64,000 nt of DNA from Candidatus Nomurabacteria bacterium (GTDB lineage: Bacteria; Patescibacteriota; Minisyncoccia; Phycocordibacterales; UBA918): positions 92,011-156,010 of the forward strand of contig JACKGE010000001.1 in NCBI GenBank assembly GCA_020632155.1, given 5' to 3'. The notes under the pieces are model-generated. The model saw only the letters and a list, made by a program, of their open reading frames with translations, searched no databases and had not been told where the DNA came from. Of this stretch, positions 5,759 through 50,722 are shown in pieces. Position 1 is the first letter of the stretch. Each line of letters starts with the position of its first letter. A program made the position numbers and the translations under genes.

Positions 5759-5783
5759 TTATCAAACCACTAACTAACGAACT

Positions 5784-6527: not shown

Positions 6528-7886
6528 TTAAAATTCTATCTCTACCTCCTCATTAAGTGAGGGTGCCACCGCATTCACTCCCAAGTAATCACGCAGGCGT
6601 TGCACCAAAAAGAGTGACGAGTGCTCCTCTCCCATGGTGACAAATATTTGTTTGGCCCTATCGCCACCTTTAGCAACAAAGTCCGTCAGCTGCTCTCGGT
6701 CTGCATGTCCAGAGTAGCCACGAATACGGGCAATTTCAGCGCGAACGCGTACGTCAGCATTATCAATGCGCACCTTCTTAGCACCGTCTTGGAGGAGTCG
6801 TCCAAGACTTCCAACTGACTGATATCCGACCAAGAGCAAAGTTGTGTTCTTATCCTCAAGATACCGTTTCTCGTGCATTAAGATACGACCGCCATGGCTC
6901 ATGCCGCTACCGGCAATAATAATTTTGGCGCCTTTCACTTTGGCAATGTCCTGTGAGTCTTTGACTGTGCGGGTGAACTCGAGCTTTGGAAACTCAAAAA
7001 TATCATCGCCAGCTTTAATTTGCTCCTGTATGTGTGTACTCAGATACTCCGAGTAGGTACGATAGAGCTCTGTGACGGCAATGGCCAACGGTGAATCAAG
7101 GAAGGTTGGAATTGGTGCAATAGCACCAGACTCAACGAGGTCATTGATCTCAAGGAGCATGCCCTGAGTACGCTCAAGTGAAAAAGCCGGAATAATGAGC
7201 GTGCCACCGCGACGTTGCGCCGCTTCAATATGATGCTTCAGGAGCATAGTGCGTTCCTTCACCTCTTCGTGCGAGCGATCGCCGTAGACGCTTTCCATCA
7301 CCATGTAGTCATAGCCCTGCGGCACATCAGGTGCGTCCAAGAGCGGTTGCGGCACATTACCAATGTCACCGGTAAAGACGAGCTGTTTGCCACCGCGGCT
7401 AAGGGTAATAGAGGCGGAGCCAAGAATATGGCCGACATTTTTGAACACAGCGGTAACACCGTCAGGTAGTTCCAGATTCTGGTGATAGGACACAGTCTTC
7501 CAGAGTGCTAACGCGGCGTCGATATCCCCTTCTTCGTATAAGCGGTCGATGCCAAAGCGCTCCTCCTCGTAGAGCATGACCTTATATGCGTCTTTTAGCA
7601 TCACGGCAGCGAGCGCCTTGGTTGGTTCGGTTGAGTAGATAGCACCGCGAAAGCCATCGCGTACTAGCTTGGGAATTCTCCCAATATGATCTGCGTGAGC
7701 ATGAGTCACAAGAAGAATATCTGCGTCAGCTGGATTGTACGGGAACGGATCAGCATTTGCAGCCATGGCAAATCGATCCCCCTGAATAAGACCGCAGTCT
7801 ACTAAGATAGCGGTCTCTCCAGTATCAAGCATGAAGTTCGCTCCCGTCACACTGCCAACACCGCCGTAGAATCCAAGAGTACTCAT
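6528..7886 (-). CDS. beta-CASP family MBL-fold ribonuclease (RNase J/CPSF-like)
   Basis: 452 aa; HAHADH metallo-beta-lactamase motif and beta-CASP region. Confidence 0.75.
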   Translation of the reverse strand: MSTLGFYGGVGSVTGANFMLDTGETAILVDCGLIQGDRFAMAANADPFPYNPADADILLVTHAHADHIGRIPKLVRDGFRGAIYSTEPTKALAAVMLKDAYKVMLYEEERFGIDRLYEEGDIDAALALWKTVSYHQNLELPDGVTAVFKNVGHILGSASITLSRGGKQLVFTGDIGNVPQPLLDAPDVPQGYDYMVMESVYGDRSHEEVKERTMLLKHHIEAAQRRGGTLIIPAFSLERTQGMLLEINDLVESGAIAPIPTFLDSPLAIAVTELYRTYSEYLSTHIQEQIKAGDDIFEFPKLEFTRTVKDSQDIAKVKGAKIIIAGSGMSHGGRILMHEKRYLEDKNTTLLLVGYQSVGSLGRLLQDGAKKVRIDNADVRVRAEIARIRGYSGHADREQLTDFVAKGGDRAKQIFVTMGEEHSSLFLVQRLRDYLGVNAVAPSLNEEVEIEF

Positions 7887-9457: not shown

Positions 9458-10240
9458 CTACTTTTTACTTCCTTGAGTCAACACCTCAGGACCTTTAGCA
9501 GTTATCAAAACGGTGTGCTCCATATGAGCAGCCAGCCCTCCATCAGCAGAAAGGACCGTGTACCCGTCACTCTCATCAAAGATCACGTCTTTGCTGCCAG
9601 CAATTATCATCGGTTCAATGGCAATGACCATACCTGATTCGAGCTCTGGACTATCACCTTTCATAACAAAATTTGGCACAGTTGGCTCTTCATGGACGTT
9701 ATAACCAACGCCGTGTCCGCAGAGTGCCTCAACAATGCCATACTCTTTAGGAACCATCGCCTCAATGGCGGCGCCGATGGCCTTAACGCGCGCACCCGCC
9801 GTAGCTGCCTTTATTCCTGCCTTAAGAGCGGCAGCAGTGATATCAATCAGTGCCTGCGCTTCATGGCTGAGGGTACCGCAGCCAACGGTGCGGGCGGAGT
9901 CGACAACCATGCCTTCAAACCCAATAACAAGGTCGATACTAACCACATCGCCATCCGCAAATGTGATTGGATGTTCGTTAGGAATACCATGTACCACGAC
10001 ATCATTTACAGACACACAAGTAGCAGCGGGATACGGACGCGGCGCAAACTGGGGCCTATAGCCAAGAATCATCGGCTCAACACCATATTCCTCAATGAGT
10101 TCCATAGCGCGATCATCAACGTCAAGTGAGGTGTTGCCCGGTACTACCTCCTTTTCGAGCTCATCTAAAATACGGCCGAGTATCTGCCCGCCCTTGCGCA
10201 ATTTCTTGATATCTTCTTCGGTTTTAAGTGTAATTGCCAT
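9458..10240 (-). CDS. map: type I methionine aminopeptidase
   Basis: 260 aa; MAITLKTEEDIKKLRKGGQILGRIL... and metal-binding D/D/H/E/E residues. Confidence 0.9.
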   Translation of the reverse strand: MAITLKTEEDIKKLRKGGQILGRILDELEKEVVPGNTSLDVDDRAMELIEEYGVEPMILGYRPQFAPRPYPAATCVSVNDVVVHGIPNEHPITFADGDVVSIDLVIGFEGMVVDSARTVGCGTLSHEAQALIDITAAALKAGIKAATAGARVKAIGAAIEAMVPKEYGIVEALCGHGVGYNVHEEPTVPNFVMKGDSPELESGMVIAIEPMIIAGSKDVIFDESDGYTVLSADGGLAAHMEHTVLITAKGPEVLTQGSKK

Positions 10241-13686: not shown

Positions 13687-13791
13687 AGTTTAGTTTGTAG
13701 GTGTTAGGTAGTAGGTCATAGGTGCTCACGCTACGTACAGTGTACAGCAGTCGAGTGACAAAACTATAACCTAAAACCGTCGACCTGTACC
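13687..13791. repeat. palindromic heptamer-repeat element copy C4 (TAGGTN x4 ... TATAACCTAAAACC) in secY leader
   Basis: GTAGGTG TTAGGTA GTAGGTC ATAGGTG on plus strand = ACCUA heptamers immediately 5' of secY AUG on mRNA. Confidence 0.6.
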
Positions 13792-14241
13792 TTAGTTTAC
13801 CGTTCCGCCAGCTTTTTCAATCTTTTCTTTGGCGGCCTTTGATACCTCACAGCCAGTGACCGTAAGCTTTTTGCTTACTTCTCCGGTTCCGAGAATTTTA
13901 ACGAGGGGTGCCTTTTTGCGACGGGCATTGATAACACCCGCTGTCACAAGTGCCTTTGGACTAACCTCAGCACCAGCTTCAAAGGTACTCTCGAGCACAC
14001 TAAGGTTCACGGGCACCGGACGTACACGTTCCGCGTTAACGGTTGCGGCACGATTAACACCATGACCACGAAGCTTTGGCAGCTTCTTAATGGTCTCACG
14101 CATCTGTGGCACCGTACTGTTACCAGCACGAGCCTTTTGACCTTTATGACCACGACCTGATGTTTTACCACGCTTTCCACCACGACCAATACGCTTGGCG
14201 GTCTTTCGACTGGTGGATGGCTTTAATTCATGTAGCTGCAT
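13792..14241 (-). CDS. rplO: 50S ribosomal protein L15
   Basis: MQLHELKPSTSRKTAKRIGRGGKRGKTSGRGHKGQKAR. Confidence 0.9.
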   Translation of the reverse strand: MQLHELKPSTSRKTAKRIGRGGKRGKTSGRGHKGQKARAGNSTVPQMRETIKKLPKLRGHGVNRAATVNAERVRPVPVNLSVLESTFEAGAEVSPKALVTAGVINARRKKAPLVKILGTGEVSKKLTVTGCEVSKAAKEKIEKAGGTVN

Positions 14242-16392: not shown

Positions 16393-16628
16393 TAGGTTTA
16401 ATGGTTAGCACTTCGTACATAACACACAAAACGAACTGTCGTTCGCTACGGTGAGATATTGCTATGACGTTGTGCAGTGGAGCAGTATCACCTAGATGTA
16501 GTGACTGACTCCGCTGATAATCCGGCTCGCAGCCTCTGGCTGCTCGCCTTCACAAAAGTGGCTCCCATCTACTCCCAAGCCGCTTTTATGGTGCGCCTAC
16601 TATACGTGAAAATAAGGAAATAGCAAGA

Positions 16629-17108
16629 CTATTCCTGATTTAGTTCTGATCGGAGCTCCATCCATATTTGGCCAAGCCAATTTTGACCTTGCCAGTCTGC
16701 ACCTCGCCCCCAACAACTGTCTTTAGGTGAATCTTCAATCAATTTGGCATTTTCAGTTTGCCGCAGTGTCTTCTCAATGTATGGATGCTGTGAGATCTTT
16801 GCGCGACAAATATCTTTCATGACGACTCTCTTTTCGTCTTCCCAAGATGGACGTAATTTATTCTGATACTTTATAGCCAATTTAAGTGCGTCATGGGCTG
16901 AAGTAGCAGACGCTATCTCTTCAACAATACTTACATCATCGAAACCGGCGGCTTGAAATGCGTGCTCAGATGTCTGCCACAAACGTTCTTGCCACATTAC
17001 TGAAAAAGCAGCAAAGTTGGAAAAACAGTATCCGAACTCTCCTCCGTAGAACAAAACGGGGTCTGTAATCTTCTCTGAGTATGTATTTTCAGAATTGTTT
17101 ACGAACAT
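16629..17108 (-). CDS. NADAR (YbiA-like, DUF1768) domain protein
   Basis: FYGGEFGYCFSNFAAFSVMWQERLWQTSEHAFQAAGF matches the NADAR/YbiA signature. Confidence 0.7.
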   Translation of the reverse strand: MFVNNSENTYSEKITDPVLFYGGEFGYCFSNFAAFSVMWQERLWQTSEHAFQAAGFDDVSIVEEIASATSAHDALKLAIKYQNKLRPSWEDEKRVVMKDICRAKISQHPYIEKTLRQTENAKLIEDSPKDSCWGRGADWQGQNWLGQIWMELRSELNQE

Positions 17109-17133
17109 ACACTATTTTTAGCACATTATTAAA

Positions 17134-17165
17134 AACCGGCCGAGGATCACTCCCCAGCCGGTTCT
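17134..17165 (-). terminator. hairpin terminator overlapping the 3' end of ORF 17147..17824
   Basis: minus strand AACCGGCTGGGGAGTGATCCTCGGCCGGTTTTTAATAAT. Confidence 0.5.
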
Positions 17166-17824
17166 GATATGACTGCCTTCCACAGCCGCTCAAGCTCGCG
17201 CCCGATTCGCAGCCGCCACGATATTTGAAGCCGTAAGAGGTACCGATATACTCCATGAAGCCGACCATACACCCATGAGTAGACATACTTGGGCACACGC
17301 TGGAGTACCGGCGGTACTAGTTTCTGGAGACCCAAAAACGCAACCGATCGGAACAAGAAATGCTGCGTGGACCGTAGCCCATACAACACATATGGTCGCA
17401 CCAAAGGCCAGAAACCAATGATAACGATCACAAAATGACCGAAGTAATGGTGCACGACCACAAACAGTGACACGCTGAAGGTGAGCGACAGAAGTATTCT
17501 AAATGGTGTTGAAACCAGAATATTCAGCCGTGTCTTCAATAGCAGCCAGAATGCGCGGCCGTACTGGCCCACCTGCTTGGATAGGGCGTCTACTCGTTTC
17601 CGTACCCAGCGCGGCGCCAACGGGCGCAAGAACCACAACATTAGGTACTGCGGCGCTGATATCAGCACAAAGCGACGAGTCAGTACCAATATCCACGCTA
17701 CAACCGAGTCGTACGTTACCTCCCTCAAGACCCATTCAATTTGGCGAACCAGTGTGTCCCGAGGCATAGCCTCGGGCGCAAAATATGCCCCCAGCCCAAA
17801 GAGGAGGAACAGCAATTTTCGCAT
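17147..17824 (-). CDS. hypothetical polytopic membrane protein (W/R/L-rich)
   Basis: 225-aa ORF inserted between rplE and rpsN; multiple overlapping alternative-frame ORFs make coding status uncertain. Confidence 0.4.
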   Translation of the reverse strand: MRKLLFLLFGLGAYFAPEAMPRDTLVRQIEWVLREVTYDSVVAWILVLTRRFVLISAPQYLMLWFLRPLAPRWVRKRVDALSKQVGQYGRAFWLLLKTRLNILVSTPFRILLSLTFSVSLFVVVHHYFGHFVIVIIGFWPLVRPYVLYGLRSTQHFLFRSVAFLGLQKLVPPVLQRVPKYVYSWVYGRLHGVYRYLLRLQISWRLRIGRELERLWKAVISEPAGE

Positions 17825-19509: not shown

Positions 19510-19716
19510 CTAGTTAGTCTCTGCCTTAGGAGCTTCCTTACCACGAGCGGTAAGTTCTGTTAGTGCGCGAGCGATCTCGTGACGAGCTGCGCGAACCGCA
19601 CGCACATCACGAGATGCGTGGTTGAAACGCGCGCTGCGCATTTCTTCTCGACGCTCAGTAACAAGCTCTTGTAACTCTTTGTCGCTCAGTTTGCGAATGT
19701 CTGCCATTGTTTTCAT
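19510..19716 (-). CDS. rpmC: 50S ribosomal protein L29
   Basis: MKTMADIRKLSDKELQELVTERREEMRSARF...; start moved to internal Met (ORF begins 19770). Confidence 0.85.
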   Translation of the reverse strand: MKTMADIRKLSDKELQELVTERREEMRSARFNHASRDVRAVRAARHEIARALTELTARGKEAPKAETN

Positions 19717-19814
19717 AATATTTCGTATTTCGCTAGTTCGCTCTTCGTTTTTCGAAGGTGCCCGAGGCACTCTCGAAGTGCTAAAAGCGAGGGACGAAGT
19801 GCGAGAAACTTGGG

Positions 19815-20254: not shown

Positions 20255-20974
20255 TTAGTTACGAGGGGTGCGACGAGGACGCGCGGCTGGCTTTTCAGCC
20301 TCACCACTGGCGCGACGATCTGCAAAGACGTCACCACGGTAGATCCACACCTTGATACCAATGGCACCGTACGGAAGTACTGCAGTTACGCGCGCAAAAT
20401 CAATGTCTGCACGTAGGGTTTGTAGTGGGATTCGACCTTTCTTGAGCTCTTCGCGACGAGCCATATCAGCTCCGCCAAGACGTCCGGATACAATGATACG
20501 AACACCTTGTACGTCACGATTAGCCATTACCTTCTCAACGGTCTGCTTAAGCACGCGACGAAATGGCATGCGCTTTTCTAGACCTTCCGCTACCATCTGG
20601 CCGACGATAGTGGCGCTCGTTTCTGGTGAGCGAACCTCTTCAATATCGATCTTAAGCTCTGGCTTCTCCTCAAGTTTGAGGGTACGCAAGAGCATATCGA
20701 CATCCTTCTTTAGTTTAGTAGCTCCTTCGCCGCTACGACCAATGACCAACCCTGGGCGGGCGGTCTTGATGAGGATACGAAGGGCTTTTTCATCACGCTC
20801 GATCTCTACCGTGTCGACTGACATACCTTTAAGGCGCTTTGCCAGCAACTTACGGATAGCAGCATCGGTGCGTAGATATTCACGAAAACGCTTTTGGTCA
20901 GCTGCGAACCAGCGGCTACGCCAGTCGCGGTTGATTCCAATGCGTTGTACGTATGGATGTGCTACGTGTGTCAT
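20255..20974 (-). CDS. rpsC: 30S ribosomal protein S3
   Basis: 239 aa, KH domain plus C-terminal basic tail. Confidence 0.93.
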   Translation of the reverse strand: MTHVAHPYVQRIGINRDWRSRWFAADQKRFREYLRTDAAIRKLLAKRLKGMSVDTVEIERDEKALRILIKTARPGLVIGRSGEGATKLKKDVDMLLRTLKLEEKPELKIDIEEVRSPETSATIVGQMVAEGLEKRMPFRRVLKQTVEKVMANRDVQGVRIIVSGRLGGADMARREELKKGRIPLQTLRADIDFARVTAVLPYGAIGIKVWIYRGDVFADRRASGEAEKPAARPRRTPRN

Positions 20975-21059
20975 AATTTAGGTTATAGGTTATAGGTTAT
21001 AGGGAAATCGTATTCGACAATTTCTGACACCTGAAACCTGACACCTGTTAACTTAGGCT
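20975..21059. repeat. palindromic heptamer-repeat element copy C1 in rplV-rpsC intercistronic space
   Basis: plus strand TAGGTTA TAGGTTA TAGGTTA TAGGG - hairpin GAAATCG..ATTTC - TGACACC TGAAACC TGACACC TG. Confidence 0.65.
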
Positions 21060-21377
21060 TTAGCCTAGTTCGACAGTGATGTGACTGTTTCGACGATTAA
21101 TTGGGGACGCGCTACCGCGGGCACGAGGCATAAAGCGCTTATAGGTTGCGCCCTTGTCTACAGTGACCTTTTTGATGGTAAGGTGGTCGACATTCTTGCC
21201 AGATTGAGCCGCGTTGGCTGCTGCTGACGAAATGACCTTAGCAAACGGACCAGCCGCACGCTTATCGACAAACTGCAAGGTGGCCAACGCCTCCTTTACT
21301 TTCTTGCCGCGTACGAGGTCTGCAATGAGACGAACCTTACGAGGTGACTGGCGGTAATTCTTAAGTACTGCTTTCAT
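21060..21377 (-). CDS. rplV: 50S ribosomal protein L22
   Basis: MKAVLKNYRQSPRKVRLIADLVRGKKV. Confidence 0.9.
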   Translation of the reverse strand: MKAVLKNYRQSPRKVRLIADLVRGKKVKEALATLQFVDKRAAGPFAKVISSAAANAAQSGKNVDHLTIKKVTVDKGATYKRFMPRARGSASPINRRNSHITVELG

Positions 21378-21467
21378 GATTTTAGGTTATAGGTTGTAGG
21401 TTATAGGTTGTAGAGAAATCGTCTTTGAAGATTTCTGAAACCTGAAACCTGTCACCTGCAAACTTCG
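21378..21467. repeat. palindromic heptamer-repeat element copy C2 in rpsS-rplV intercistronic space
   Basis: TAGGTTA TAGGTTG TAGGTTA TAGGTTG TAG - hairpin AGAAATCGTCTTTGAAGATTTCT - GAAACCT GAAACCT GTCACCTG. Confidence 0.65.
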
Positions 21468-22029: not shown

Positions 22030-22467
22030 ATGAAGGAACATACGCTCCGTCGAATCACTGTGGCCGTGTTTTTTGCACCTTTTTTGGTGAGTTGTCAGTA
22101 TTGCTACGAACTACAGACAGAGATGGCCCCGCAAATGATAGCGGGTAAACCATGGACACCTGCAATGCAAGCTTTTTGGTTTAGGTACACCCAAACCAAC
22201 AGCGTGATGATGGTGTCATTGGCATTATTGATTGTTCTACATTTCTGGAAGTCAGGATCAAGGTCTCGAGCCGCAGATCTGGTGAGATATCTGTACTTCG
22301 GTCTACTTGAAGGACTTACTATTGCCGTTGCGACATACACCTACGGAATCAGTGTGGTATTCACCACGACAACCGCAGAGTGGTTTTCCTACTTTTTGGT
22401 GAGCTGGGGCCTTTATATTGGCCATTTGCAGAGCCACGAACTTTCTCGACTTCTACCCAAAAACTAA
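22030..22467 (+). CDS. hypothetical membrane protein (145 aa), opposite strand, inserted between rplB and rpsS
   Basis: SD GGGAGG 6 nt before ATG; about 4 TM. Confidence 0.55.
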   Translation: MKEHTLRRITVAVFFAPFLVSCQYCYELQTEMAPQMIAGKPWTPAMQAFWFRYTQTNSVMMVSLALLIVLHFWKSGSRSRAADLVRYLYFGLLEGLTIAVATYTYGISVVFTTTTAEWFSYFLVSWGLYIGHLQSHELSRLLPKN

Positions 22468-22725: not shown

Positions 22726-22764
22726 TCTGTTACCTAGACAAAAGCCGCGCCCTATGGGCGCGGC
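22726..22764 (+). terminator. 18-bp perfect hairpin (TAGACAAAAGCCGCGCCC-TAT-GGGCGCGGCTTTTGTCTA)
   Basis: perfect inverted repeat after small + strand gene. Confidence 0.55.
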
Positions 22765-22796
22765 TTTTGTCTAGGCATAGTGATACGCTTACTAAT

Positions 22797-22833
22797 AATC
22801 AAAAAACCTGCGCAAGGCGCAGGTTTTTTGATT
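22797..22833. terminator. bidirectional terminator abutting the rplB stop codon (AATCAAAAAACCTGCGC-AAG-GCGCAGGTTTTTTGATT)
   Basis: 17-bp stem with A6/T6 flanks; would terminate rplC-rplB transcription before rpsS. Confidence 0.65.
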
Positions 22834-23695
22834 ATTTCTTCCTGTTCTGCATGAGCTTGCCGGGTTTGCGGCGAGACACGATGAACTTGTTTGAGTACTT
22901 CTTTGGTTTACGGGTCTTTTGACCTTTACCAGTCGGACGACCTTGTGCGGTGCGTGAACGCTTGTGACCACGAGGACTGCGTCCCTCACCACCTCCATGT
23001 GGGTGATCAACTGCGTTCTTGGCGCTACCACGTGTCTTCGGGCGAAGACCCATATGGCGAGCACGTCCCGCCTTACCGATGTTTACCAAACGGTGTTCCT
23101 CATTTGAGGCTTCACCAACTGTTGCCCAGCAAGTCGAGAGGATACGGCGCACCTCCGATGATGGGAGTTTGAGCTGCGTGTACCCACCGTCATGAGCTAC
23201 CACCTCGGCGTAGTTACCGGCGCTACGCGCAATGCGAGCTCCAGCACCCGGCTTTAGTTCAATAGCGTAGACAAAGGTACCTGCTGGTAGTTTACCAAGT
23301 GGCAAACGATTACCAAGCTTAGCCTTTGCTTTCTCCGAAACGGTGAAGGTATCACCTACCTTCATACGCTGTGGTGCTACGATGTAGCGACGCTCACCGT
23401 CTTTGTAGAGTACAAGGGCGATAAACGCGCTACGGTAGGGATCGTATTCGACAGATTCTACCTTCGCTGGAATATCCTTCTTATCGAACTTGAAGTCGAT
23501 CTCACGATACTTGCGCTTGTTGCCAGCACCACGATACCACGTAGTGGTACGACCTTGACTGTTACGACCACCGGTTGAACTCTTACCCTTTACAAGGGCC
23601 TTGTGTGGCTGGTTCTTAGAGCCTGAGAGTTTCTCTTTGTATGAGACAACGGTCATGCCACGACGACCAGCTGATGTTGGTTTGTATTTTTTCAT
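22832..23695 (-). CDS. rplB: 50S ribosomal protein L2
   Basis: 287 aa; ...GGGEGRSPRGHKRS... Confidence 0.93.
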   Translation of the reverse strand: MKKYKPTSAGRRGMTVVSYKEKLSGSKNQPHKALVKGKSSTGGRNSQGRTTTWYRGAGNKRKYREIDFKFDKKDIPAKVESVEYDPYRSAFIALVLYKDGERRYIVAPQRMKVGDTFTVSEKAKAKLGNRLPLGKLPAGTFVYAIELKPGAGARIARSAGNYAEVVAHDGGYTQLKLPSSEVRRILSTCWATVGEASNEEHRLVNIGKAGRARHMGLRPKTRGSAKNAVDHPHGGGEGRSPRGHKRSRTAQGRPTGKGQKTRKPKKYSNKFIVSRRKPGKLMQNRKK

Positions 23696-25385: not shown

Positions 25386-25594
25386 TTACTTTGGACTATC
25401 CTAATAAATTCTTATTAAGACCCAAACAAAATCGCACTTGGCAAGTCGCGAGCACAGCTCACGCATTACCAAGCGCGATTTTGTGCCCATTGGTTCTCAG
25501 GAATGCAGGCACTCCCTCACCGAACATAGGTCTTTAATAAGCTGGTGGTAGTATACGGATTTTGGACAAATTAGCAAGTTGCGCACCAATGTGA

Positions 25595-25624
25595 TTGACA
25601 AAAGCCTCATTGGAGCGGTATGGT
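25595..25624 (+). promoter_or_regulatory. putative promoter TTGACA-18-TATGGT driving the small peptide ORF
   Basis: sequence-only. Confidence 0.35.
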
Positions 25625-25634
25625 ACGAAGTAGG

Positions 25635-25691
25635 AGGGGTCAGCATGCGGACAGACCTTCTCTTGATCCTCGTGATCTTTTTGTACATATT
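25635..25691 (+). CDS. 18-aa hydrophobic peptide MRTDLLLILVIFLYIFRA (type I toxin-like, Ibs/Sib style) between rpsJ and rplC
   Basis: AGGAGGGG SD 6 nt upstream of ATG, own promoter, downstream terminator; too short for ORF track. Confidence 0.3.
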
Positions 25692-25842
25692 CCGCGCATA
25701 AGGAAGCTGCGATGAAAAGCAGGAATTGTGAAAGGATTTTGACAACCTTCGGATTCCTCCTCAACTATCGCAACCCTCATTGGTAGGACTACGAAGCCTG
25801 CCAAAGACCGCTAGGCCGGATAGCCTGTGAGATAAAGAAGCT

Positions 25843-25889
25843 CTGCGATGTAACCACCAACGTGTCACGTCGCAGGGCTTTTCTTTTTG
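25843..25889 (+). terminator. plus-strand hairpin + T-run (CTGCGATG...CGTCGCAG GGCTTTTCTTTTTG)
   Basis: 8-bp stem with G.T wobble, T-rich tail. Confidence 0.5.
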
Positions 25890-25895
25890 AAAATA

Positions 25896-25935
25896 AACCA
25901 AAACCCCGCGGCTGAAGCCGCGGGGTTTTGGTTTT
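25896..25935. terminator. bidirectional GC-rich terminator (AAACCCCGCGGC-TGAA-GCCGCGGGGTTTTGGTTTT) downstream of rpsJ
   Basis: 9-bp GC stem with A/T runs both sides; separates rpsJ from rplC. Confidence 0.65.
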
Positions 25936-26076
25936 GGCAACTAAGTTGAACTATTCTGAGGAAAAATGGATGAGATGCAAGGCACCGGAGGAAAATAATG
26001 TGAGTGCGGCTACTAGCCGAGCGAACATTATTTTACCGATCGGTAACAAAGCAGGTCGCCATTTTTACCAGAATAA

Positions 26077-26433
26077 CTACATCATCTTGACGTCAATAGA
26101 CACCCCAGATGGCAGAGAGAGGTTGGTCAGTGCTTCCACGACCTTTCCGCTCGGGTTCATGATGTCGATGACACGCTTATGCATGCGCATCTCAAACTGT
26201 TCTCGCGCATCCTTATGAACGAAGGTCGAGCGATTTACCGTGTACTTTTTGATCTCAGTTGGAAGCGGAATCGGACCAACAACCTTGGCGTCAAAACGCA
26301 AGGCGGTGTCGATGATCTGCTTTACACTGGTATCGAGGATCTTGTGTTCATAAGCACGAACACGAATACGGAGTTTTTGAATCTCTCCAGCAGGCGCCTT
26401 GGCGCTGCTTTTTGTTGTTTTAGTAGTTGCCAT
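26077..26433 (-). CDS. rpsJ: 30S ribosomal protein S10 (N-terminal extension)
   Basis: ...IRVRAYEHKILDTSVKQIIDTALRFDAKVVGPIPLPT... Confidence 0.9.
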   Translation of the reverse strand: MATTKTTKSSAKAPAGEIQKLRIRVRAYEHKILDTSVKQIIDTALRFDAKVVGPIPLPTEIKKYTVNRSTFVHKDAREQFEMRMHKRVIDIMNPSGKVVEALTNLSLPSGVSIDVKMM

Positions 26434-26538
26434 ATTTTAAGGTTTTAGTTTATAGGTTTAAGGTTTCAGTGTTTGGTGTAAGAAACGCCAAAGCATTTCT
26501 GCAACCATCAAACCTTATCCCTGTCCTTTACATTGTTG
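26434..26538. repeat. heptamer-repeat element copy C3 (diverged) in tuf-rpsJ intergenic leader
   Basis: AAGGTTT TAGTTTA TAGGTTT AAGGTTT CAGTGTT - hairpin AGAAACGCCAAAGCATTTCT. Confidence 0.55.
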
Positions 26539-27729
26539 CTAGGCAACAATTTTAGTTACCACACCGGCACCAACAGTCTTACCACCCTCACGGATAGCAA
26601 AGCTCTGCTGTTCCTCAAGTGCTACTGGAGCTACAAGCTTAACCTTAAAGGTCGCAGTATCACCAGGCATAACCATCTCAACACCATCAGCGAGGCTTAC
26701 CTCACCGGTAACGTCAGTGGTACGAATGTAGAACTGTGGCTTGTAACCGGTAAAGAATGGAGTGTGACGACCACCTTCGTCTTTCGCGAGGACGTATACC
26801 TCAGCTTCAAACTCAGTGTGTGGGGTCACGCTGCCAGGAGCAGAAATGACTTGACCACGGTGAACGTCTTCCTTCTTTGTACCACGGAGCAAGATACCAG
26901 CGTTGTCACCAGCCTGAGCTGAATCAAGTGACTTGTTGAACATTTCAACACCGGTAACAGTGGTCTTAGTAGTGTCTTTGATACCAACGATCTCACACTC
27001 ATCACCAACCTTGACTTGACCGCGTTCTACACGACCGGTTACTACCGTACCGCGACCTTCAATTGAGAAGATGTCCTCGATTGGCATCAAGAATGGCTTG
27101 TCGAGTTCACGAACTGGCATTGGGAAGTATGAATCCATCGCATCAACGAGCTCGAGCACCTTAGCACCCCAGTCTCCATTTGGCTCCTCAAGAGCCTTAA
27201 GACCTGAACCCTTGATGATCGGAGCATCAGCACCTTCATAACCATTGGCAGTAAGGAGTTCACGAAGTTCCTCCTCAACCAACATGATCATGTCCTCATC
27301 GTCGACCATGTCGCACTTGTTAAGGAATACGATGATCTTTGGCACACCCACCTGCTTTGCAAGGAGTACGTGCTCACGAGTCTGAGGCATAGCACCATCA
27401 GTAGCTGCTACTACGAGCACAGCGCCGTCCATCTGGGCAGCACCAGTGATCATGTTCTTGATGTAGTCAGCGTGCCCTGGAGCGTCAATATGAGCGTAGT
27501 GACGATTTGGTGTCCAGTACTCTGAGTGAGAAAGAGAAATAGTAATACCTCGCGCCTTCTCTTCTGGCGCTTTGTCGATGTCCTCAACAGCCTTTACGTT
27601 AGCGCCGTAGTCGCCGCCTTTGGCATTGAGAACCTGAAGGATAGCAGCAGTGAGCGTAGTCTTACCATGGTCTACGTGACCAATGGTACCTACGTTCATG
27701 TGCGGCTTTGAACGATCAAAATCTGACAT
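26539..27729 (-). CDS. tuf: elongation factor Tu
   Basis: [30 protein letters not shown]...; start at internal Met of ORF 26539..27762. Confidence 0.95.
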
Positions 27730-29177: not shown

Positions 29178-29356
29178 TGATTACTGTTCGATATCTTCAT
29201 CGAACATTCCAAGACAGACAAAGTGTGCTCCCTCACGAAACAGTCCTCGGCGCTGGTGTTTGCTATCGTGAGTTTCCCTGCTCCAGCGGCGCACCAACGC
29301 CTGAAGCGAGATGAGGTCCGTTCTGTATCCATTAACAATGTGCCACGGAATTATGT

Positions 29357-29400
29357 AAAACGCAAAACTACATTACAAGTGTAATGTAGTTTTGCGTTTT
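29357..29400. terminator. perfect 20-bp hairpin AAAACGCAAAACTACATTAC-AAGT-GTAATGTAGTTTTGCGTTTT (bidirectional)
   Basis: perfect palindrome with A4/T4 flanks. Confidence 0.55.
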
Positions 29401-29464
29401 ACTACTTAAGTCCGACTTAGTAGCTTATTCCGCCTTCTTCTTACAGAAGCTGTTCAGGTTGTAT

Positions 29465-29500
29465 GACAGAACCCTGCAAGCAAGCTTGCAGGGTTCTGTC
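29465..29500 (-). terminator. perfect 16-bp hairpin GACAGAACCCTGCAAG-CAAG-CTTGCAGGGTTCTGTC downstream of fusA
   Basis: perfect palindrome 24 nt after fusA stop. Confidence 0.55.
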
Positions 29501-29523: not shown

Positions 29524-31683
<2,160 letters not shown>

Positions 31684-31825
31684 AAATAATATTTGGTTGC
31701 TTAGTTGCTTAGTAACGTGTGTCAGTTGATAAACCCTCCCTATTTGTGCACTTGGGTCGGCACCTTCGGCGCCGACCCACTCCCGCGCAAACGAAATAGA
31801 AATAGCCCGAAGGCTAGACGGCAGT

Positions 31826-32614: not shown

Positions 32615-34672
32615 ATGAACAAAGATTTTGATGTAGTTGTCATTGGTGCCGGCTCCGGTGGTCTTACCGCCGCGATCGGTTTTGCCAAAGTGGGCAAACG
32701 CGTACTTCTTATTGAACGCGAACATATGGGCGGTGAGTGTACGAACTCCGGCTGCGTACCGAGTAAAGCCCTACTCCATTTTGCCAAAGAGCACTACGCC
32801 GGAAACCCGAAGTACGCCAAGCTGGGTGAGGCACTTCCCTACGTGCGCTCCAAGATAGAAGCTATCCGCGCCGAGGAAAGCGTAGACGAGCTTGAGAAAC
32901 ACGGTATTGCTACCGTTATGGGTGAAGCAAAATTTACTGCTCCTTGTGTCGTTGAGGTAAATGGGACTGCGTATCGTTTCAAAAAGGCCGTTATTGCAAC
33001 TGGTTCATCGCCACGCACAACAGAGATTGCTGGACTCAATACAGAAGATCTTCTCACCAACCAAACTATATTTGGGCTTACGGAATTACCAAAACGACTT
33101 CTTATCATCGGCAGTGGTCCTATTGGCCTAGAGATGGCCAATGCCTTTGCCCTCCTTGGAACTAAGGTCACCATTGCAACCATCGATACTACCCTCGCAC
33201 GCCTCGAAGAACCGGCGGTAGCTAAGTTGCTACAAGAACGTTTCAAGGAACTCGATATCGCCGTCATTTTGCGTGCATTTATCAATGAAGTACGCGGTCG
33301 CGAGGCGGTGATTGATATCAAAGACGGTGAGACGATAATCGGACAGGAAACAGCCGCGTTTGACAAAGTGCTTGTCGCCATTGGACGAGTACCCAATCTC
33401 CCTCAAGGACTCGAAGCGGCTGGTATTCAGTTTAACCAGCACGGTATCGAGGTTGATAGCCAGCACCGCACCAGCAATCGACATGTCTATGCAGTTGGTG
33501 ATGTAGCGCAACGTCTTAAGTTCACTCATACTGCCAACGACGTAGCGCGGCAGGTGGTCACCCACGTAGTAAGTCGCGGACTTCTGCGCTTTGATAGTGA
33601 CAAAGCGGTGCCGAAAGTAACCTACACCGAACCGGAAATGGCTCAGGTTGGACTATCGTACGCAGCAGCAGTGGAAAAATATTCAGAGGCGGAAGTGATG
33701 CGTATTGAGGTACCGTATGAAGATAGCGACCGCGCCAAGACTGACAACAATACAACGGGTGTAGTTATTGTAAGCGTGCGACGCCTTAGTGGTACCGTAC
33801 TCGGAGCTAGTATTGCCGGCCAGCACGCCGGTGAGCTCATTAGTATCTTTACACTGGCTATCGATCAAAAGTTATCACTCTGGCGCCTTCGCCGACTGAT
33901 TTTTGCCTACCCCACCTATGGCCTCCTGATAAAGAAGGCAGCGGATGTATTTTTTGCCGAGCAGCTGAGGAACCTCAAGGCTGATTTTCTCTTCCTGCTT
34001 AAAAAACACGCTCCCAAACTTATCGCTCTTACATTCTGGCTTGCACTCATTTACACCTTCCAGCACTATCGTATTTCACACCACCTTACCTACCGCGACA
34101 TGCTATTGTCGCTCTATGAGTTCTTCACCATGTCGATGTGGGGGCCACTTATCTATATTGTGCTCTACGCCTTGCGACCACTCATCCTCTTTCCAGCCAC
34201 CCTCCTGACCGCGCTTTCCGGTGCACTCTTTGGACTCTGGTGGGGCATTCTCTACACCGTAATTGGAGAAAACATGTCAGCGAACTTAGCCTACAGTATT
34301 GGTCGCTTCTTTGGTAAGGACCTTCGCCTTGAGGACACCTTTATGGGCCATTGGGTTGAGTGGCTACGAGCACGCCCGTTTGAGTCGGTACTATTTATGC
34401 GTCTCTTTTACGTACCATTTGACCTTGCCAACTATGGCTCTGGGGTACTTAAGGTATCGTGGCCTAGTTATGCTCTGGCAACGTTTGTCGGTATCATCCC
34501 CGGACTTACCACCTTTGTGGCGCTTGGCGCTGCCGTTGACGTCATGGAGCTACGGATGGAAGGACTTAGTTTCAACGCCTTTGATCCACGGTATCTGGCA
34601 CTTTCGGTAAGTCTGTTCGTGACCTCGGTGGTACTGTCGCGATATCTAAAACGCTGGAAAGCGACACAATAA
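32615..34672 (+). CDS. fusion: FAD-dependent pyridine nucleotide-disulfide oxidoreductase (mercuric reductase/dihydrolipoamide dehydrogenase-like) + C-terminal DedA/TVP38-TMEM64 membrane domain
   Basis: DVVVIGAGSGG, redox-active GGECTNSGCVPSK, NAD-binding GxGxxG; C-terminal ~230 aa polytopic DedA-like segment. Confidence 0.75.
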   Translation: MNKDFDVVVIGAGSGGLTAAIGFAKVGKRVLLIEREHMGGECTNSGCVPSKALLHFAKEHYAGNPKYAKLGEALPYVRSKIEAIRAEESVDELEKHGIATVMGEAKFTAPCVVEVNGTAYRFKKAVIATGSSPRTTEIAGLNTEDLLTNQTIFGLTELPKRLLIIGSGPIGLEMANAFALLGTKVTIATIDTTLARLEEPAVAKLLQERFKELDIAVILRAFINEVRGREAVIDIKDGETIIGQETAAFDKVLVAIGRVPNLPQGLEAAGIQFNQHGIEVDSQHRTSNRHVYAVGDVAQRLKFTHTANDVARQVVTHVVSRGLLRFDSDKAVPKVTYTEPEMAQVGLSYAAAVEKYSEAEVMRIEVPYEDSDRAKTDNNTTGVVIVSVRRLSGTVLGASIAGQHAGELISIFTLAIDQKLSLWRLRRLIFAYPTYGLLIKKAADVFFAEQLRNLKADFLFLLKKHAPKLIALTFWLALIYTFQHYRISHHLTYRDMLLSLYEFFTMSMWGPLIYIVLYALRPLILFPATLLTALSGALFGLWWGILYTVIGENMSANLAYSIGRFFGKDLRLEDTFMGHWVEWLRARPFESVLFMRLFYVPFDLANYGSGVLKVSWPSYALATFVGIIPGLTTFVALGAAVDVMELRMEGLSFNAFDPRYLALSVSLFVTSVVLSRYLKRWKATQ

Positions 34673-34702
34673 AAAAGTCCGAGCACTGCTCGGACTTTTT
34701 TA
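34671..34702. terminator. bidirectional terminator AAAAAAGTCCGAGC-ACT-GCTCGGACTTTTTT
   Basis: perfect 9-bp stem, A6/T6 flanks. Confidence 0.7.
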
Positions 34703-34913
34703 TAGTAGTGTCAGCCTTATTTCTTTTTAGCGGCCTTCTTCACTGCCTTCTTGGCAACTTTTTTCTTTTTGTCCATGATCGTTTGCATAGCTAGTAATGC
34801 ATGATCACCTGTAGTGTGGGGAAGTTACTCCTTGGCCCAAGGGCGCTTCATGTACCAAAATTATACAAGCAAGTTTCAAACTCCAGATACAAGCAGGTGT
34901 GAATACCACAACC

Positions 34914-43518: not shown

Positions 43519-43560
43519 ACAAAACAAAACTGCTCCCAATTGGGAGCAGTTTTGTTTTTT
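43519..43560. terminator. bidirectional terminator AAAACAAAACTGCTCCC-AATT-GGGAGCAGTTTTGTTTT downstream of rpsG
   Basis: perfect 17-bp stem. Confidence 0.7.
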
Positions 43561-43680: not shown

Positions 43681-44154
43681 CTACCAGGCGAAGTGGGCAA
43701 AGGCCCTGTTAGCCTCAGCCATCTTATGCGTATCCTCCTTCTTCTTCACGGCATCACCTTCGTTCTTAGCAGCAAGCATAAGCTCGTTTGCTAGTGCTTT
43801 ATGCATTGGGATGCCCTTTTGCTTGCGGGCAGCAGCAATGATCCAGCGCAGGGCCAAAGCAGTGCGGCGCTCTGGACGCACCTCACGCGGCACCTGATAG
43901 TTGGCGCCACCGACGCGACGGCTACGCACCTCCATCATTGGACCGGCGTTTTGGAGCGCCGTGTTGAATATCTCAACCGGCTCACCCCCGCCCTCCTTGG
44001 CGTTCTTAATGATATCGAAAGCAGCATACACGATCTTGCGTGCTGTCTCCTTTTGACCACGAAGCATGATGTAGTTGATAAGGCGCTCAACAGCAACCTC
44101 ACCGAACTTGATGTCAGGCGTGACTATGGGTCGTTTTTTTATTGGTCGTCTCAT
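43681..44154 (-). CDS. rpsG: 30S ribosomal protein S7
   Basis: MRRPIKKRPIVTPDIKFGEVAVERLINYIMLRGQK... Confidence 0.93.
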   Translation of the reverse strand: MRRPIKKRPIVTPDIKFGEVAVERLINYIMLRGQKETARKIVYAAFDIIKNAKEGGGEPVEIFNTALQNAGPMMEVRSRRVGGANYQVPREVRPERRTALALRWIIAAARKQKGIPMHKALANELMLAAKNEGDAVKKKEDTHKMAEANRAFAHFAW

Positions 44155-44399
44155 GACTTTAGTTATTAGTTATGAGCGAAAAAATGAGAAGTATGACACA
44201 TCATATTTTCATTCTTCGCATAATGGTCACTCTTTCGAGTACCAATCGGTATCTGTAGCGAATATAAACTATTAAGTTACTCGTTTTAAATCAGGTGGAA
44301 ATTGTTTTGTAGCGCGGCGCACAAGGAATGTGGCGCGAGCTTTATTTGGCAATAAAGTGAGTGTCACATTACCGCCGTGCAACAAAGCTACAGAACGAT

Positions 44400-44813
44400 T
44401 TACTCTGATTTAGGGCGCTTAGCGCCGTAGCGACTACGTCCCCGACGTCGCGCATCTACACCCGCTGAGTCGTACTTACCTCGTACGACGGTGTAGTTGA
44501 CACCGATGTCTTTAACACGACCGCCACGTACCAATACCACAGAGTGCTCCTGCAAGTTGTGTCCCTCACCAGGGATGTAGGCAGTGATCTCCTGACCGTT
44601 AGTAAGACGAACACGGGCGATCTTTCGAATCGCAGAGTTCGGCTTACGCGGCGTCTTGGTGGTCACACGCGTACAGACCCCACGCTTGAATGGTGAGTTG
44701 TAGCTGTTTGGACGGTTCTTGATCTTGTCAAAACCCGACTGCAGAGCAGCTGTTTTGGTCTTGGTCGCAGTGTCGCGACGCTTACGCTTGGTTAATTGAT
44801 TGATTGTTGCCAT
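44400..44813 (-). CDS. rpsL: 30S ribosomal protein S12
   Basis: [13 protein letters not shown]...[48 protein letters not shown]; internal Met of ORF starting 44858. Confidence 0.95.
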
Positions 44814-46087: not shown

Positions 46088-46131
46088 CAGACCTATTAAT
46101 ACTGCGATTAATCGCAGTATTAATAGGTCTG
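46088..46131. repeat. perfect 44-bp palindrome CAGACCTATTAATACTGCGATTAATCGCAGTATTAATAGGTCTG
   Basis: self-reverse-complementary over all 44 nt; between rpmB and comEC C-terminal gene. Confidence 0.8.
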
Positions 46132-50240: not shown

Positions 50241-50258
50241 CAACTCAATAATAACACA

Positions 50259-50294
50259 CCCCTATATACTCCAGTTAACTGGAGTATATAGGGG
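50259..50294. repeat. perfect 36-bp palindrome CCCCTATATACTCCAGTTAACTGGAGTATATAGGGG (copy 1 of duplicated core)
   Basis: abuts stop of YerC-like gene and lies 18 nt upstream of rnhA ATG. Confidence 0.8.
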
Positions 50295-50696
50295 TTACTT
50301 TAGTGCCCGCTTCCATCGTCCTTTACCCATTGGCGGCATACCTCCCTGCAAAACAGTTTCAAGTGTCTTGAGAAATGCCTCACGATCAAATTTCTTTGAA
50401 CTGACCAATTTCAGTATTGCCGCAAAGTGTCCTTCATCGTATTTGAGAGCATAGTCACTGGCAGTTGTCTCACTCAACTTGAGTGTTTGCGATATTCTAT
50501 ATCGGGAATAACCTTTATCTAACATTACGATGGTCGCCAACCGTTTCATGTACATTACTCGTTCCGACTCAGTAAATAATTCATTAAAAAGTTCTCCAGC
50601 TGTTTTGCTGTTACAAACCGCAAAGAGATCAGTGAGTTGCTTTTGCAGTTGTTGTATGTGAGCTGACTTGAGTTCTTGTTTTGAAACGTTGGTCAT
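50295..50696 (-). CDS. TrpR-like YerC/YecD family DNA-binding protein
   Basis: ...ERVMYMKRLATIVMLDKGYSRYRISQTLKLSETTASDYALKY... resembles the YerC HTH. Confidence 0.6.
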   Translation of the reverse strand: MTNVSKQELKSAHIQQLQKQLTDLFAVCNSKTAGELFNELFTESERVMYMKRLATIVMLDKGYSRYRISQTLKLSETTASDYALKYDEGHFAAILKLVSSKKFDREAFLKTLETVLQGGMPPMGKGRWKRALK

Positions 50697-50722
50697 AATA
50701 CTCCAGTTAACTGGAGTATTAT
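50695..50722. repeat. perfect 28-bp palindrome ATAATACTCCAGTTAACTGGAGTATTAT (copy 2), overlapping ATG and SD of YerC-like gene
   Basis: shares 22-bp core ATACTCCAGTTAACTGGAGTAT with 50259-50294. Confidence 0.8.

Follow-up and report, generated by a model that had tools for sequence, protein, structure and literature searches.

Tandem arrays of seven-nucleotide units close to start codons have been on record in bacteria since 1990 (the cyanobacterial short tandemly repeated repetitive, or STRR, sequences) and 2015 (the TAACTGA repeats), with no accepted function. The TAACTGA repeats are known from marine Beggiatoaceae and from some members of the Cyanobacteria and Bacteroidetes, and a part in translation has been suggested for them (MacGregor 2015, PMC4679880). 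Among the long simple repeats of prokaryotes, heptamers are the most frequent, and polymerase slippage has been offered as their source (Mrazek 2007, cited in PMC4679880); the intergenic tandem heptamers of Nostoc and of the STRR type lie near starts or promoters and are suspected of affecting translation (bioRxiv 10.1101/2022.06.06.494920). Here we examine heptamer arrays of the ACCUA and ACUAA type that precede ribosomal-protein (r-protein) and translation-factor genes in a 64,000-nucleotide stretch of DNA from a Candidatus Nomurabacteria bacterium (GenBank assembly GCA_020632155.1, contig JACKGE010000001.1, positions 92,011 to 156,010), which we refer to as the window. Coordinates without a prefix are window positions, and related loci carry L numbers.

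Translational coupling between neighboring genes provides a second set of precedents. Its two models are reviewed in PMC12548453, RNA structure is able to mediate it, as in E. coli rpmI-rplT and phage f1 genes VII-IX (PMC12548453), and its efficiency drops steeply as the stop-start distance grows (PMC12548453, PMC10666635). We favor the view, to which we assign a probability of roughly 0.4, that the ACCUA/ACUAA leaders are the start-proximal parts of lineage-specific intercistronic repeat elements, the long ones of which keep stop and start codons adjacent and thereby preserve coupling.

Results

Heptamer arrays precede translation genes of the window

The window has a GC content of 49% and carries a minus-strand S10-spc r-protein cluster as well as tuf, fusA, rpsL-rpsG and infC-rpmI-rplT, with gene identities taken from Pfam. 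A first-pass annotation had proposed that its translation genes use ACCUA/ACUAA heptamer-repeat leaders in place of Shine-Dalgarno (SD) sequences and that these leaders form a dedicated initiation or autoregulatory signal. The leaders it quoted are all present on the minus-strand mRNA, before rpsJ (26434-26468), rpsC, rplV, secY, rpsN, rpsG, fusA and infC, and that of rplT was likewise confirmed. ACCTA or ACTAA lies within positions -35 to -1 of 11 of the 27 translation genes of the window as against 3 of the 42 others (Fisher p=0.0014), and a lag-7 match of 0.5 or more over the last 35 nt of the intergenic region is seen in 7/10 regions before translation genes but in 0/19 of the remaining regions of the window that are co-directional or divergent. 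Tandem Repeats Finder (TRF) returned period-7 arrays at 20979-21003, 21383-21413, 26436-26466 and 44159-44173, which lie 5′ of the rpsC, rplV, rpsJ and rpsG starts, respectively. The description as heptamer-repeat leaders holds well for the strong ACCUA arrays but less well for the ACUAA cases at rpsG, rplT and fusA, which are solo arrays of about two units with weaker evidence. The intergenic regions are identical in three independent assemblies of the window's species, so the arrays are real, are no assembly artefact and are not hypervariable at the strain level.

The translation genes do lack SD sequences, an SD-like motif being found at only 1 of the 27 (a weak AGGA before rplC). The contrasting claim that non-translation genes have textbook SDs is correct for 9 of 42, including the reverse transcriptase and small open reading frames (ORFs), but not for the rest, and an SD is missing before most window genes of either class.

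The ACCUA leaders are 3′ arms of intercistronic hairpins

In the strong cases, which are rpsJ, rplV, rpsC, secY and rpmC, a second 7-nt array with a complementary core lies just past the upstream stop codon, and thus the ACCUA leader is the 3′ arm of an intercistronic hairpin. The paired arrays face each other, as in CAGGUGU-CAGGUUU-CAGGUGU against CCUAUAA-CCUAUAA-CCUAUAA, with a small apical hairpin (AGAAAU...AUUUCU) between them. When the window elements were folded with RNAfold, the arrays paired into a long helix made of 4-5 bp segments with 2x2 or 3x3 loops between them, and the z scores of the five elements ranged from -1.8 to -3.5. Arms and apical hairpin are common to the rplV, rpsC and rpsJ elements. 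The first-pass annotation had remarked neither on the complementary upstream arrays, of the form (C)AGGU-N3 at 21024-21047 and 21435-21463, nor on the fifth element, built of UUCG/CGAA units before rpmC.

All five elements are on the minus strand. The tuf-rpsJ element (26434..26538; -26.7 kcal/mol, z -3.2; TRF period 7 at 26436-26466) consists of a 5′ arm AAAGGAC-AGGGAUA-AGGUUUG-AUGGUUG (~26529-26502), an apical hairpin CAGAAAUGC..GCGUUUCU (~26501-26480) and a 3′ arm of ACCUU/ACCUA/ACUAA heptamers (26479-26434) that ends 2-5 nt before the rpsJ AUG (26433). The rpsS-rplV element (21378..21467; z -3.5), which is identical in assemblies L212 and L213, has the 5′ array CAGGUGA-CAGGUUU-CAGGUUU-CAG (21458-21435), the apical hairpin AAAUCUUC..GACGAUUUC (21434-21415) and the 3′ array CUACAAC-CUAUAAC-CUACAAC-CUAUAAC-CUAAAAUC (21414-21378), followed by the rplV AUG at 21377. 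Its paralogue, the rplV-rpsC element (20975..21059; z -2.55), is identical in L207, L212 and L213 and runs from CAGGUGU-CAGGUUU-CAGGUGU-CAG (21047-21024) through the apical hairpin AAAUUGUCG..CGAUUUC (21023-21004) to (CCUAUAA)x3-CCUAAAUU (21003-20975), with the rpsC AUG at 20974. The rplP-rpmC element (19717..19814; z -2.9, lag-7 match 0.50) has a 5′ arm of (C/U)UUCG-type heptamers (19808-19772), an apical hairpin (19771-19757) and the 3′ arm CGAAAAA-CGAAGAG-CGAACUAG-CGAAAUA-CGAAAUAUU (19756-19717), with the rpmC AUG at 19716; with its UUCG/CGAA units it makes the unit sequence variable even inside this genome. Finally, the rplO-secY element (13687..13791; -29.9 kcal/mol, z -1.8) joins the 5′ arm GGUACAGGUCGACGGUUUUAGGUUAUAG (13791-13759) by a central region (13758-13725) to the 3′ arm CACCUAUG-ACCUACU-ACCUAAC-ACCUACA-AACUAAACU (13724-13687), which adjoins the secY AUG at 13686. 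Its orthologue in L081 has altered arms.

We observe, in addition, a shorter form in which a solo array makes up an entire 25-55 nt spacer, whereas the form with two complementary arrays and an apical hairpin occupies spacers of 60-160 nt and is predicted to fold into a long bulged hairpin. The short ACUAA-type solo array in the 25-nt rpmI-rplT spacer, CAAACCACUAACUAACGAACU (5763..5783, plus strand), is one such case. Other start-proximal arrays are on the minus strand. The rpsG array, (UAACUAA)x2 at 44155..44174, stands directly before the rpsG AUG (44154) at the 3′ end of the rpsL-rpsG spacer. The fusA leader UUACUAAGCAACUAAGCAACCAAAUAUUAUUU (31683..31714) contains two 8-nt units (TRF period 8, 31696-31713), with neither an SD at functional spacing nor a complementary arm, and the rpsN leader CUAACCAUUAAACCUA (16393..16410) has a weak period of 7 (0.50) and forms the 3′ end of a 236-nt promoter-bearing spacer. 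The rpsL-rpsG spacer as a whole (44155-44399, 245 nt) is highly structured (-68.7 kcal/mol, z -4.7) and has no Rfam match; it may be an autoregulatory region of the S7 type.

The elements themselves contain nothing that resembles a promoter or a terminator. We considered the TATAAC units as -10 boxes that would give leaderless mRNAs, and rejected this because the elements contain no promoter-like hits, the position-specific composition carries no -10 signature, and other families are without TATAAC.

Spacer halves are preferred partners and would bring stop and start together

The homologues of the window's S3 and the 80 related loci that we collected put the window in Candidatus Paceibacterota, near Kaiserbacteria, within the Candidate Phyla Radiation (CPR). 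The comparison set of these 80 Paceibacteria loci plus the window came to 81 sequences and 1.12 Mb. Because covariation within the multi-copy family of L024 is uninformative, we relied on an own-versus-foreign duplex test of the two arms, carried out on 125 r-protein-cluster spacers of 60-160 nt. When a 5′ half was paired with its own 3′ half and with 40 foreign 3′ halves, its own was the best duplex partner for 39% of the spacers (expected 2.4%) and among the top three for 62% (expected 7%). The minimum free energies of the same spacers have a median z of -3.7 against dinucleotide shuffles, with 61% below -3.

The position of the hairpin within the spacer is also constrained. There are 21 bridging pairs versus 11 in shuffles, and the median distance of the outermost one is 5 nt from the stop before it and 9 nt from the AUG that follows. 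Of the spacers, 58% have the hairpin base no more than 10 nt from the stop and no more than 15 nt from the AUG, whereas 23% of shuffles do. Taken together, the flanks left unpaired have a median length of 15.5 nt; in the 881 native short spacers the median is 8 nt. The state of the arrays follows spacer length, 18 of 20 being unpaired in spacers shorter than 60 nt versus 24 of 32 paired in spacers of at least 60 nt. The polarity of G between the two arms is weak (53:32, p=0.03), and a G-poor 3′ arm is therefore no strict rule.

Arrays recur at start codons, but their units and sites turn over

When periods that are multiples of 3 are set aside, period 7 dominates, with 130 arrays as compared with 6 of period 5 in the 81 sequences. 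A placement census took in the 95 period-7 arrays of 2.9 copies or more: in 61 the array stops 0-30 nt (mostly 0-10) short of the AUG of a gene in the r-protein cluster, 16 begin 0-12 nt past a stop codon, and the remainder are mostly 5′ arms or lie before unnamed ORFs. At least one AUG-adjacent array is present in 17 of the 81 sequences, and L061, L024, L054, L031 and L003 have an element in almost every r-protein spacer.

The units themselves are diverse. Among relatives we find AGAGGGU/ACCCUAA, AGCGUUU/CGCUAAC, UAGCU/AGCUA and GAAAAUU/AAUUUUC, and further units include ACCUAUA, CGAAAxx, GCUAAxx and AGCUAUC, so that there are at least three different units in the window and dozens over all loci. 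L086 has arms of UUAGC-N2/GCUAA-N2 around an apical hairpin of its own, an ACCUA array precedes rplO in the distant relative L024, periods of 8 and 9 are also frequent in arms, and many 5′ arms, though not those of all families, have UAG or CAG every 7 nt. Units this diverse cannot all pair with one rRNA segment or suit one sequence-specific reader. The proposal of a dedicated sequence signal thus loses its footing, since units differ both among genomes and among the intergenic regions of one genome.

Occupancy turns over as well. Within a genome the copies can be near-identical, as in L024 (10 copies, 79% column identity) and L086 (6 copies), and the elements precede different genes in different genomes, with no conserved structure at one gene across relatives. 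Among relatives whose S3 is 92-94% identical the occupied sites differ, and elements can be missing from the corresponding places: the rpsS-rplV spacer measures 90 nt in the window but 18 nt in L208 and 104 nt in L081, and the rplV-rpsC spacer, an 85-nt ACCUA hairpin in the window, holds in both L208 and L081 a solo ACUAA array of 48-51 nt. The rplW-rplB spacer of L081 (L081:6201-6351) corresponds to that of L208 (L208:2377-2469) plus ~95 nt forming a (UAGGUNN)x7/(NNACCUU) hairpin, and the extra sequence is placed in the loop of a small pre-existing hairpin that is itself present in L208. This looks like a snapshot of an element arising or inserting. Judged from these comparisons, the arrays are not a fixed new ribosome-binding signal and are instead parts of fast-evolving repeat hairpins.

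A second repeated intercistronic element, ACCCAGCACCUU...AAGGUGCUGGGU, occurs in L024 beside the 10-copy family, before rplP, rplN and rpsH (L024:8706-8858, 9979-10165 and 13730-13907).

Arrays are confined to translation operons in two genomes

The link of the repeats to the translation apparatus, seen in the window, was borne out in a second, complete genome. In the 1.08-Mb genome of L086, six GCUAA arrays lie in a 20-kb r-protein region, and none was found in a 21.7-kb region around pilB (L216), despite many comparable spacers there. In the two genomes tested, the arrays are thus confined to translation operons, and in L024 all ten copies are co-oriented and lie in r-protein spacers. The sole non-ribosomal spacer of L216 with a weak period-7 signal (0.54; L216:5609-5690) precedes the gene for trigger factor, a ribosome-associated chaperone.

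We also scanned metagenomes for CCTANNACCTANNACCTANNACCTA, which contains four ACCUA units. Among the matches listed are organisms of 30-71% GC (L087-L166), a CPR-like alpha-operon contig (L122) with ACCUA arrays before rpmJ, rpsM and rpsK, and a contig (L099) with the cyanobacterial HIP1 site; the arrays are as long as 165 nt. In 13 of 88 of these listed matches an inverted AGGU array lies within 120 nt upstream, and in none downstream, against a background of 1.4%. From this 13:0 order, we conclude that paired heptamer arrays are widespread and that AGGU precedes ACCU non-randomly, an asymmetry that hairpin stability alone does not explain.

SD-less initiation is clade-wide and does not require the repeats

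An SD-like motif is found at 4-5% of the 1307 r-protein-cluster starts in the 81 loci. Positions -12 to -1 of these starts contain 5-10% G and are enriched in A, with U favored at -1. These figures indicate that SD-less initiation is the rule for r-protein-cluster genes across the clade. Repeats are no requirement for it, since most SD-less starts in these clusters have no array. Of the 881 starts whose spacer is under 40 nt and so cannot accommodate a hairpin element, only ~5% have an SD-like motif, and a few have solo arrays; most of these genes have repeat-free spacers of 1-20 nt, so the repeats are not the SD substitute. The 5-mers most enriched in r-protein spacers across the clade are CUAAC, CUAAU and ACUAA (5-9 fold), and no k-mer in these spacers has a positional peak relative to the AUG.

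The content of the AUG-proximal units is biased in ways that relate to translation and exceed what composition predicts. A stop triplet is found in 46 of 60 (expected 30.7, P<5e-5), and with a period of 7 nt the stop triplet of the unit falls in all three frames. ATG, GTG or TTG occurs in only 4 of the 60 (expected 9.8, P=0.006).

A minority of genes, including several small ORFs, an RVT_1 reverse transcriptase and an M50 peptidase, have strong, correctly spaced GGAGG-type SDs (start codons at 17824, 22030, 28743, 36422, 40619, 42133 and 45687), which implies a functional canonical anti-SD that is left unused by the core genes. AGGU arrays might be read as stand-by SD sites and ACCU arrays as mimics of the anti-SD; we rejected this reading as a mechanism of general reach, because other families have cores such as UAGC/GCUA, UUCG/CGAA and CGUU/AACG.

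Gene setting of the window

Besides its translation genes, the window encodes a type IV pilus, phosphoketolase/acetate kinase, a beta-CASP/RNase J-like enzyme (6528-7886) and numerous small ORFs without a known role. An Rfam scan of the window at gathering thresholds gave 0 matches, with no known r-protein leader and no rRNA, and ARAGORN found no tRNAs in it. The S10-spc cluster is without L30 between rpsE and rplO and is broken by non-ribosomal genes (16629-17824, 22030-22467 and 25386-26076): a 225-aa ORF without a known role and a NADAR-domain gene lie between rplE and rpsN, a 145-aa ORF on the opposite strand lies between rplB and rpsS, and the rpsJ-rplC gap is ~690 nt. Large gaps at these three places recur in most Paceibacteria loci (L001-L080) with differing inserted genes, for example a two-component system in L086. 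The str operon is scattered, with rpsL-rpsG, fusA and tuf-rpsJ at three sites (43681-44813, 29524-31682 and 26077-27729) that are 12-14 kb apart with unrelated genes intervening.

Perfect 17-24 bp palindromes with an A-tract/GC-stem/T-tract layout, resembling bidirectional intrinsic terminators, are found in the larger gaps of the window (22733-22836, 25895-25934, 29355-29402, 29465-29500, 34666-34706, 43521-43558 and 46088-46131), including the gap between rplB and the inserted gene, the rpsJ-rplC gap and the region downstream of fusA. Together with promoter-like hits, they fall in the large gaps that divide the cluster into several transcription units. These terminator-like palindromes are unrelated to the heptamer hairpins. 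Two further palindromes with the common core ACTCCAGTT/AACTGGAGT (50258-50295 and 50695-50722) are directly upstream of two neighboring genes, one RNase H-like and the other Trp-repressor-like, and may be a repeated operator.

Discussion

A model for the elements

The architecture, recurrence and sequence variability of the elements, their restriction to translation operons in two genomes, and their positional and triplet biases are observed here and bear on any explanation. The arrays are often complementary pairs that fold the whole spacer away; the unit is free, but the placement, the stop-rich and start-poor content and the G-poor last 10 nt are not; and in the genomes sampled the arrays are confined to SD-less translation operons. 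The arrays of ~7-nt units probably arose by replication slippage, and the geometry together with the sequence bias suggests a role in translational coupling. The first-pass observation is partly confirmed. Its interpretation is partly supported, in the tie to translation operons, the position against start codons, the lack of SDs there and the triplet biases, but not in the proposal of a dedicated sequence signal.

The coupling that we favor might operate as follows. The genes concerned are without an SD and, in most relatives, sit 1-20 nt behind the preceding gene, and therefore they are probably translated by ribosomes coming from the stop codon of that gene, by termination-reinitiation or scanning. 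Where an element is present, the hairpin would fold the extra ~100 nt aside, so that stop and start would in effect be only ~15 nt apart. A ribosome that terminates there would abut or melt the first units of the 5′ arm and so reach the AUG or expose its region. Units could drift as long as the arms stay complementary and the last ~10 nt stay G-poor and A-rich, and their drift would be further bounded by avoidance of false start codons and by the stop triplets in all frames. The predicted geometry is compatible either with termination-reinitiation or scanning or with unmasking by the terminating ribosome. A stronger form of this proposal, in which the elements are a structure-defined, sequence-free module whose register-flexible heptamer-array hairpins juxtapose stop and AUG for SD-less re-initiation across ~100-nt spacers, seems to us rather unlikely.

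Several results weigh against coupling. In a synthetic-operon study, as cited in PMC12548453, structure just past the stop codon correlates negatively with coupling. Where the array is solo, 25-55 nt of unstructured RNA separate stop from start, which means that some spacers do without a hairpin. Variable occupancy at 92-94% S3 identity, together with near-identical copies, is a signature of selfish elements too. No compensatory change was found at the 32 pairs of the L024 10-copy family, whose copies are too alike to score. Operon specificity was gauged against no more than ~40 kb of control sequence in the window and 22 kb in the L086 genome, and among the metagenome matches listed, paired ACCUA/AGGU arrays precede dnaE and a glycosyltransferase gene in other organisms.

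Alternative explanations

The main rival to coupling is that the arrays are selfish or neutral repeat DNA, either slippage-prone heptamer microsatellites or palindromes like miniature inverted-repeat transposable elements (MITEs) or repetitive extragenic palindromes (REPs), which multiply within a genome and, having no function, are tolerated since their hairpin folding and their lack of start codons make them harmless. Genome-specific families with near-identical copies (10 in L024 and 6 in L086) are what this predicts, as are occupancy that differs in close relatives (18 nt in the rpsS-rplV spacer of L208 versus 90 nt in the window), the resemblance of the L081 rplW-rplB spacer to a ~95-nt insertion or expansion within the small L208 hairpin, and the occurrence of ACCUA arrays, among the matches listed, in organisms of 30-71% GC and in diverse contexts; heptamer long simple sequence repeats (LSSRs) are known to be common and slippage-derived. 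Yet the elements are concentrated in essential, highly expressed operons, with none in ~60 kb elsewhere in two genomes, which is the opposite of what is expected for tolerated junk. Their tight placement, with ~5 nt between stop and hairpin base and ~9 nt between base and AUG, the excess of stop triplets and deficit of start triplets beyond composition, the constant copy number among same-species assemblies, and the 13:0 order of AGGU 5′ of ACCU arrays among the matches listed also argue against it, and we regard the selfish origin without function as possible, though on the unlikely side. Suppose instead that the 7-nt units are bound by an RNA-binding protein, oligomeric or cooperative, through which the ribosomal operons are controlled at translation, for which candidates are a cold-shock protein (Csp; ~6-7 nt per monomer), S1 or, like HutP or TRAP, a reader of triplets at a set spacing. 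The strict 7-nt register and the position at the start codon would suit such a platform, the restriction to translation operons would fit a regulon, and the UAG or CAG found every 7 nt in many 5′ arms resembles the UAG-N4 spacing of HutP sites. For the TAACTGA repeats a protein platform has likewise been proposed, the candidates there being S1, Csp and CsrA (PMC4679880). With a sequence-specific protein, however, the motif would be retained, whereas the unit is conserved neither among related genomes nor within one (the window has both ACCUAUA and CGAAAxx). Arms often have periods of 8 and 9 too, and long-spacer arrays are base-paired together and hence not exposed, all of which makes the platform quite unlikely.

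A role in RNA processing or stability, with the hairpins serving as RNase III/Y/J entry sites or 3′-end stabilisers that cut ribosomal transcripts into segments with individually tuned half-lives, and possibly into mRNAs with very short leaders, would account for long imperfect helices lying exactly between cistrons. Intercistronic stem-loops of chloroplast and some bacterial operons are analogous, and an RNase Y (L216) and the beta-CASP/RNase J-like enzyme of the window are encoded. But internal loops every 4-5 bp make the helices poor RNase III substrates, the solo arrays have no helix, and the stop/start triplet bias of the 3′ arm is left unexplained, so that we hold processing to be very unlikely. 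As for the model of the first-pass annotation, in which ACCUA/ACUAA is a linear ribosome-recruitment signal that replaces the SD by pairing with a non-canonical rRNA segment, we find it highly improbable. It can draw on the enrichment of the motif before translation genes in the window, on CUAAC, CUAAU and ACUAA being the most enriched 5-mers of r-protein spacers clade-wide, and on the ACCUA arrays before rplO in L024 and before rpmJ, rpsM and rpsK in L122, but the distance of the motif from the AUG shows no peak, unrelated units are found in other genomes and in other spacers, the majority of SD-less r-protein genes have no array, and in long spacers the array is paired to the upstream arm.

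If the coupling or shunt reading is true, the elements would provide a new bacterial route to equimolar expression over long spacers. Termination-dependent ribosome shunting over a hairpin is known from the 35S leader of cauliflower mosaic virus and offers an analogy for the window elements, and the hairpin module, if real, would be its bacterial counterpart; it could also explain start-proximal heptamer repeats in SD-poor phyla such as Beggiatoaceae, Cyanobacteria and Bacteroidetes. SD-less r-protein genes over a large block of Paceibacteria bear, in addition, on gene calling and on translation initiation in the CPR.

Comparison with known systems

The elements share much with the TAACTGA repeats. 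In both, tandem 7-nt units that contain stop codons end within a few nucleotides of starts, the genes are mostly without an SD, and copies lie inside r-protein operons (there L3, S4, S1 and fusA); the TAACTGA unit even resembles the UAACUAA arrays of the window. In contrast, a single fixed heptamer is used genome-wide there with no clear gene-class pattern, related heptamers being rarely repeated, whereas here units vary between and within genomes and neither of the two genomes tested has arrays outside translation operons. No structure is predicted for the TAACTGA repeats, whose 170 sets include only one inverted pair, whereas complementary hairpin pairs are common here. The STRR, Nostoc and LSSR heptamers are likewise intergenic and near starts or promoters, with a proposed slippage origin, and ACCUA-type arrays occur in the cyanobacterial-looking L099. 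They are found in other taxa with other units, however, and complementary pairs that bridge stop and start in ribosomal operons are, so far as we are aware, not described for them.

In the known cases of structure-mediated coupling, as here, the stop of the upstream ORF lies within a hairpin or a few nucleotides ahead of it, the downstream start borders the 3′ side of that hairpin, and the downstream genes have weak intrinsic initiation signals (PMC12548453). Those cases are single conserved structures that mask an SD-containing ribosome-binding site, whereas here there is no SD, the AUG is unpaired, the helices are built of repeats, periodic and evolutionarily labile, and the coupling is putative. 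Like REPs, bacterial interspersed mosaic elements and MITEs, the elements are multi-copy, genome-specific, hairpin-forming and intergenic, with occupancy that varies between relatives; unlike them, they have tandem heptamer arrays as arms in place of unique inverted repeats, and they keep one orientation relative to genes and lie only in translation operons in the sampled sequence.

The SD-independent, A-rich and G-poor initiation regions of Bacteroidetes and Cyanobacteria are similar in that r-protein genes are SD-less, here clade-wide, with G depleted and A enriched at -12 to -2 and with strong SDs kept by a minority of other genes, but the repeat hairpins add a further layer here. As far as our literature search shows, we know of no description of such initiation regions for Paceibacteria, and the search found no report of such repeat hairpins in CPR bacteria. 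Compared with the known heptamer repeats, what is apparently new at this locus is the combination of variable units, complementary hairpins and an apparent restriction to translation operons.

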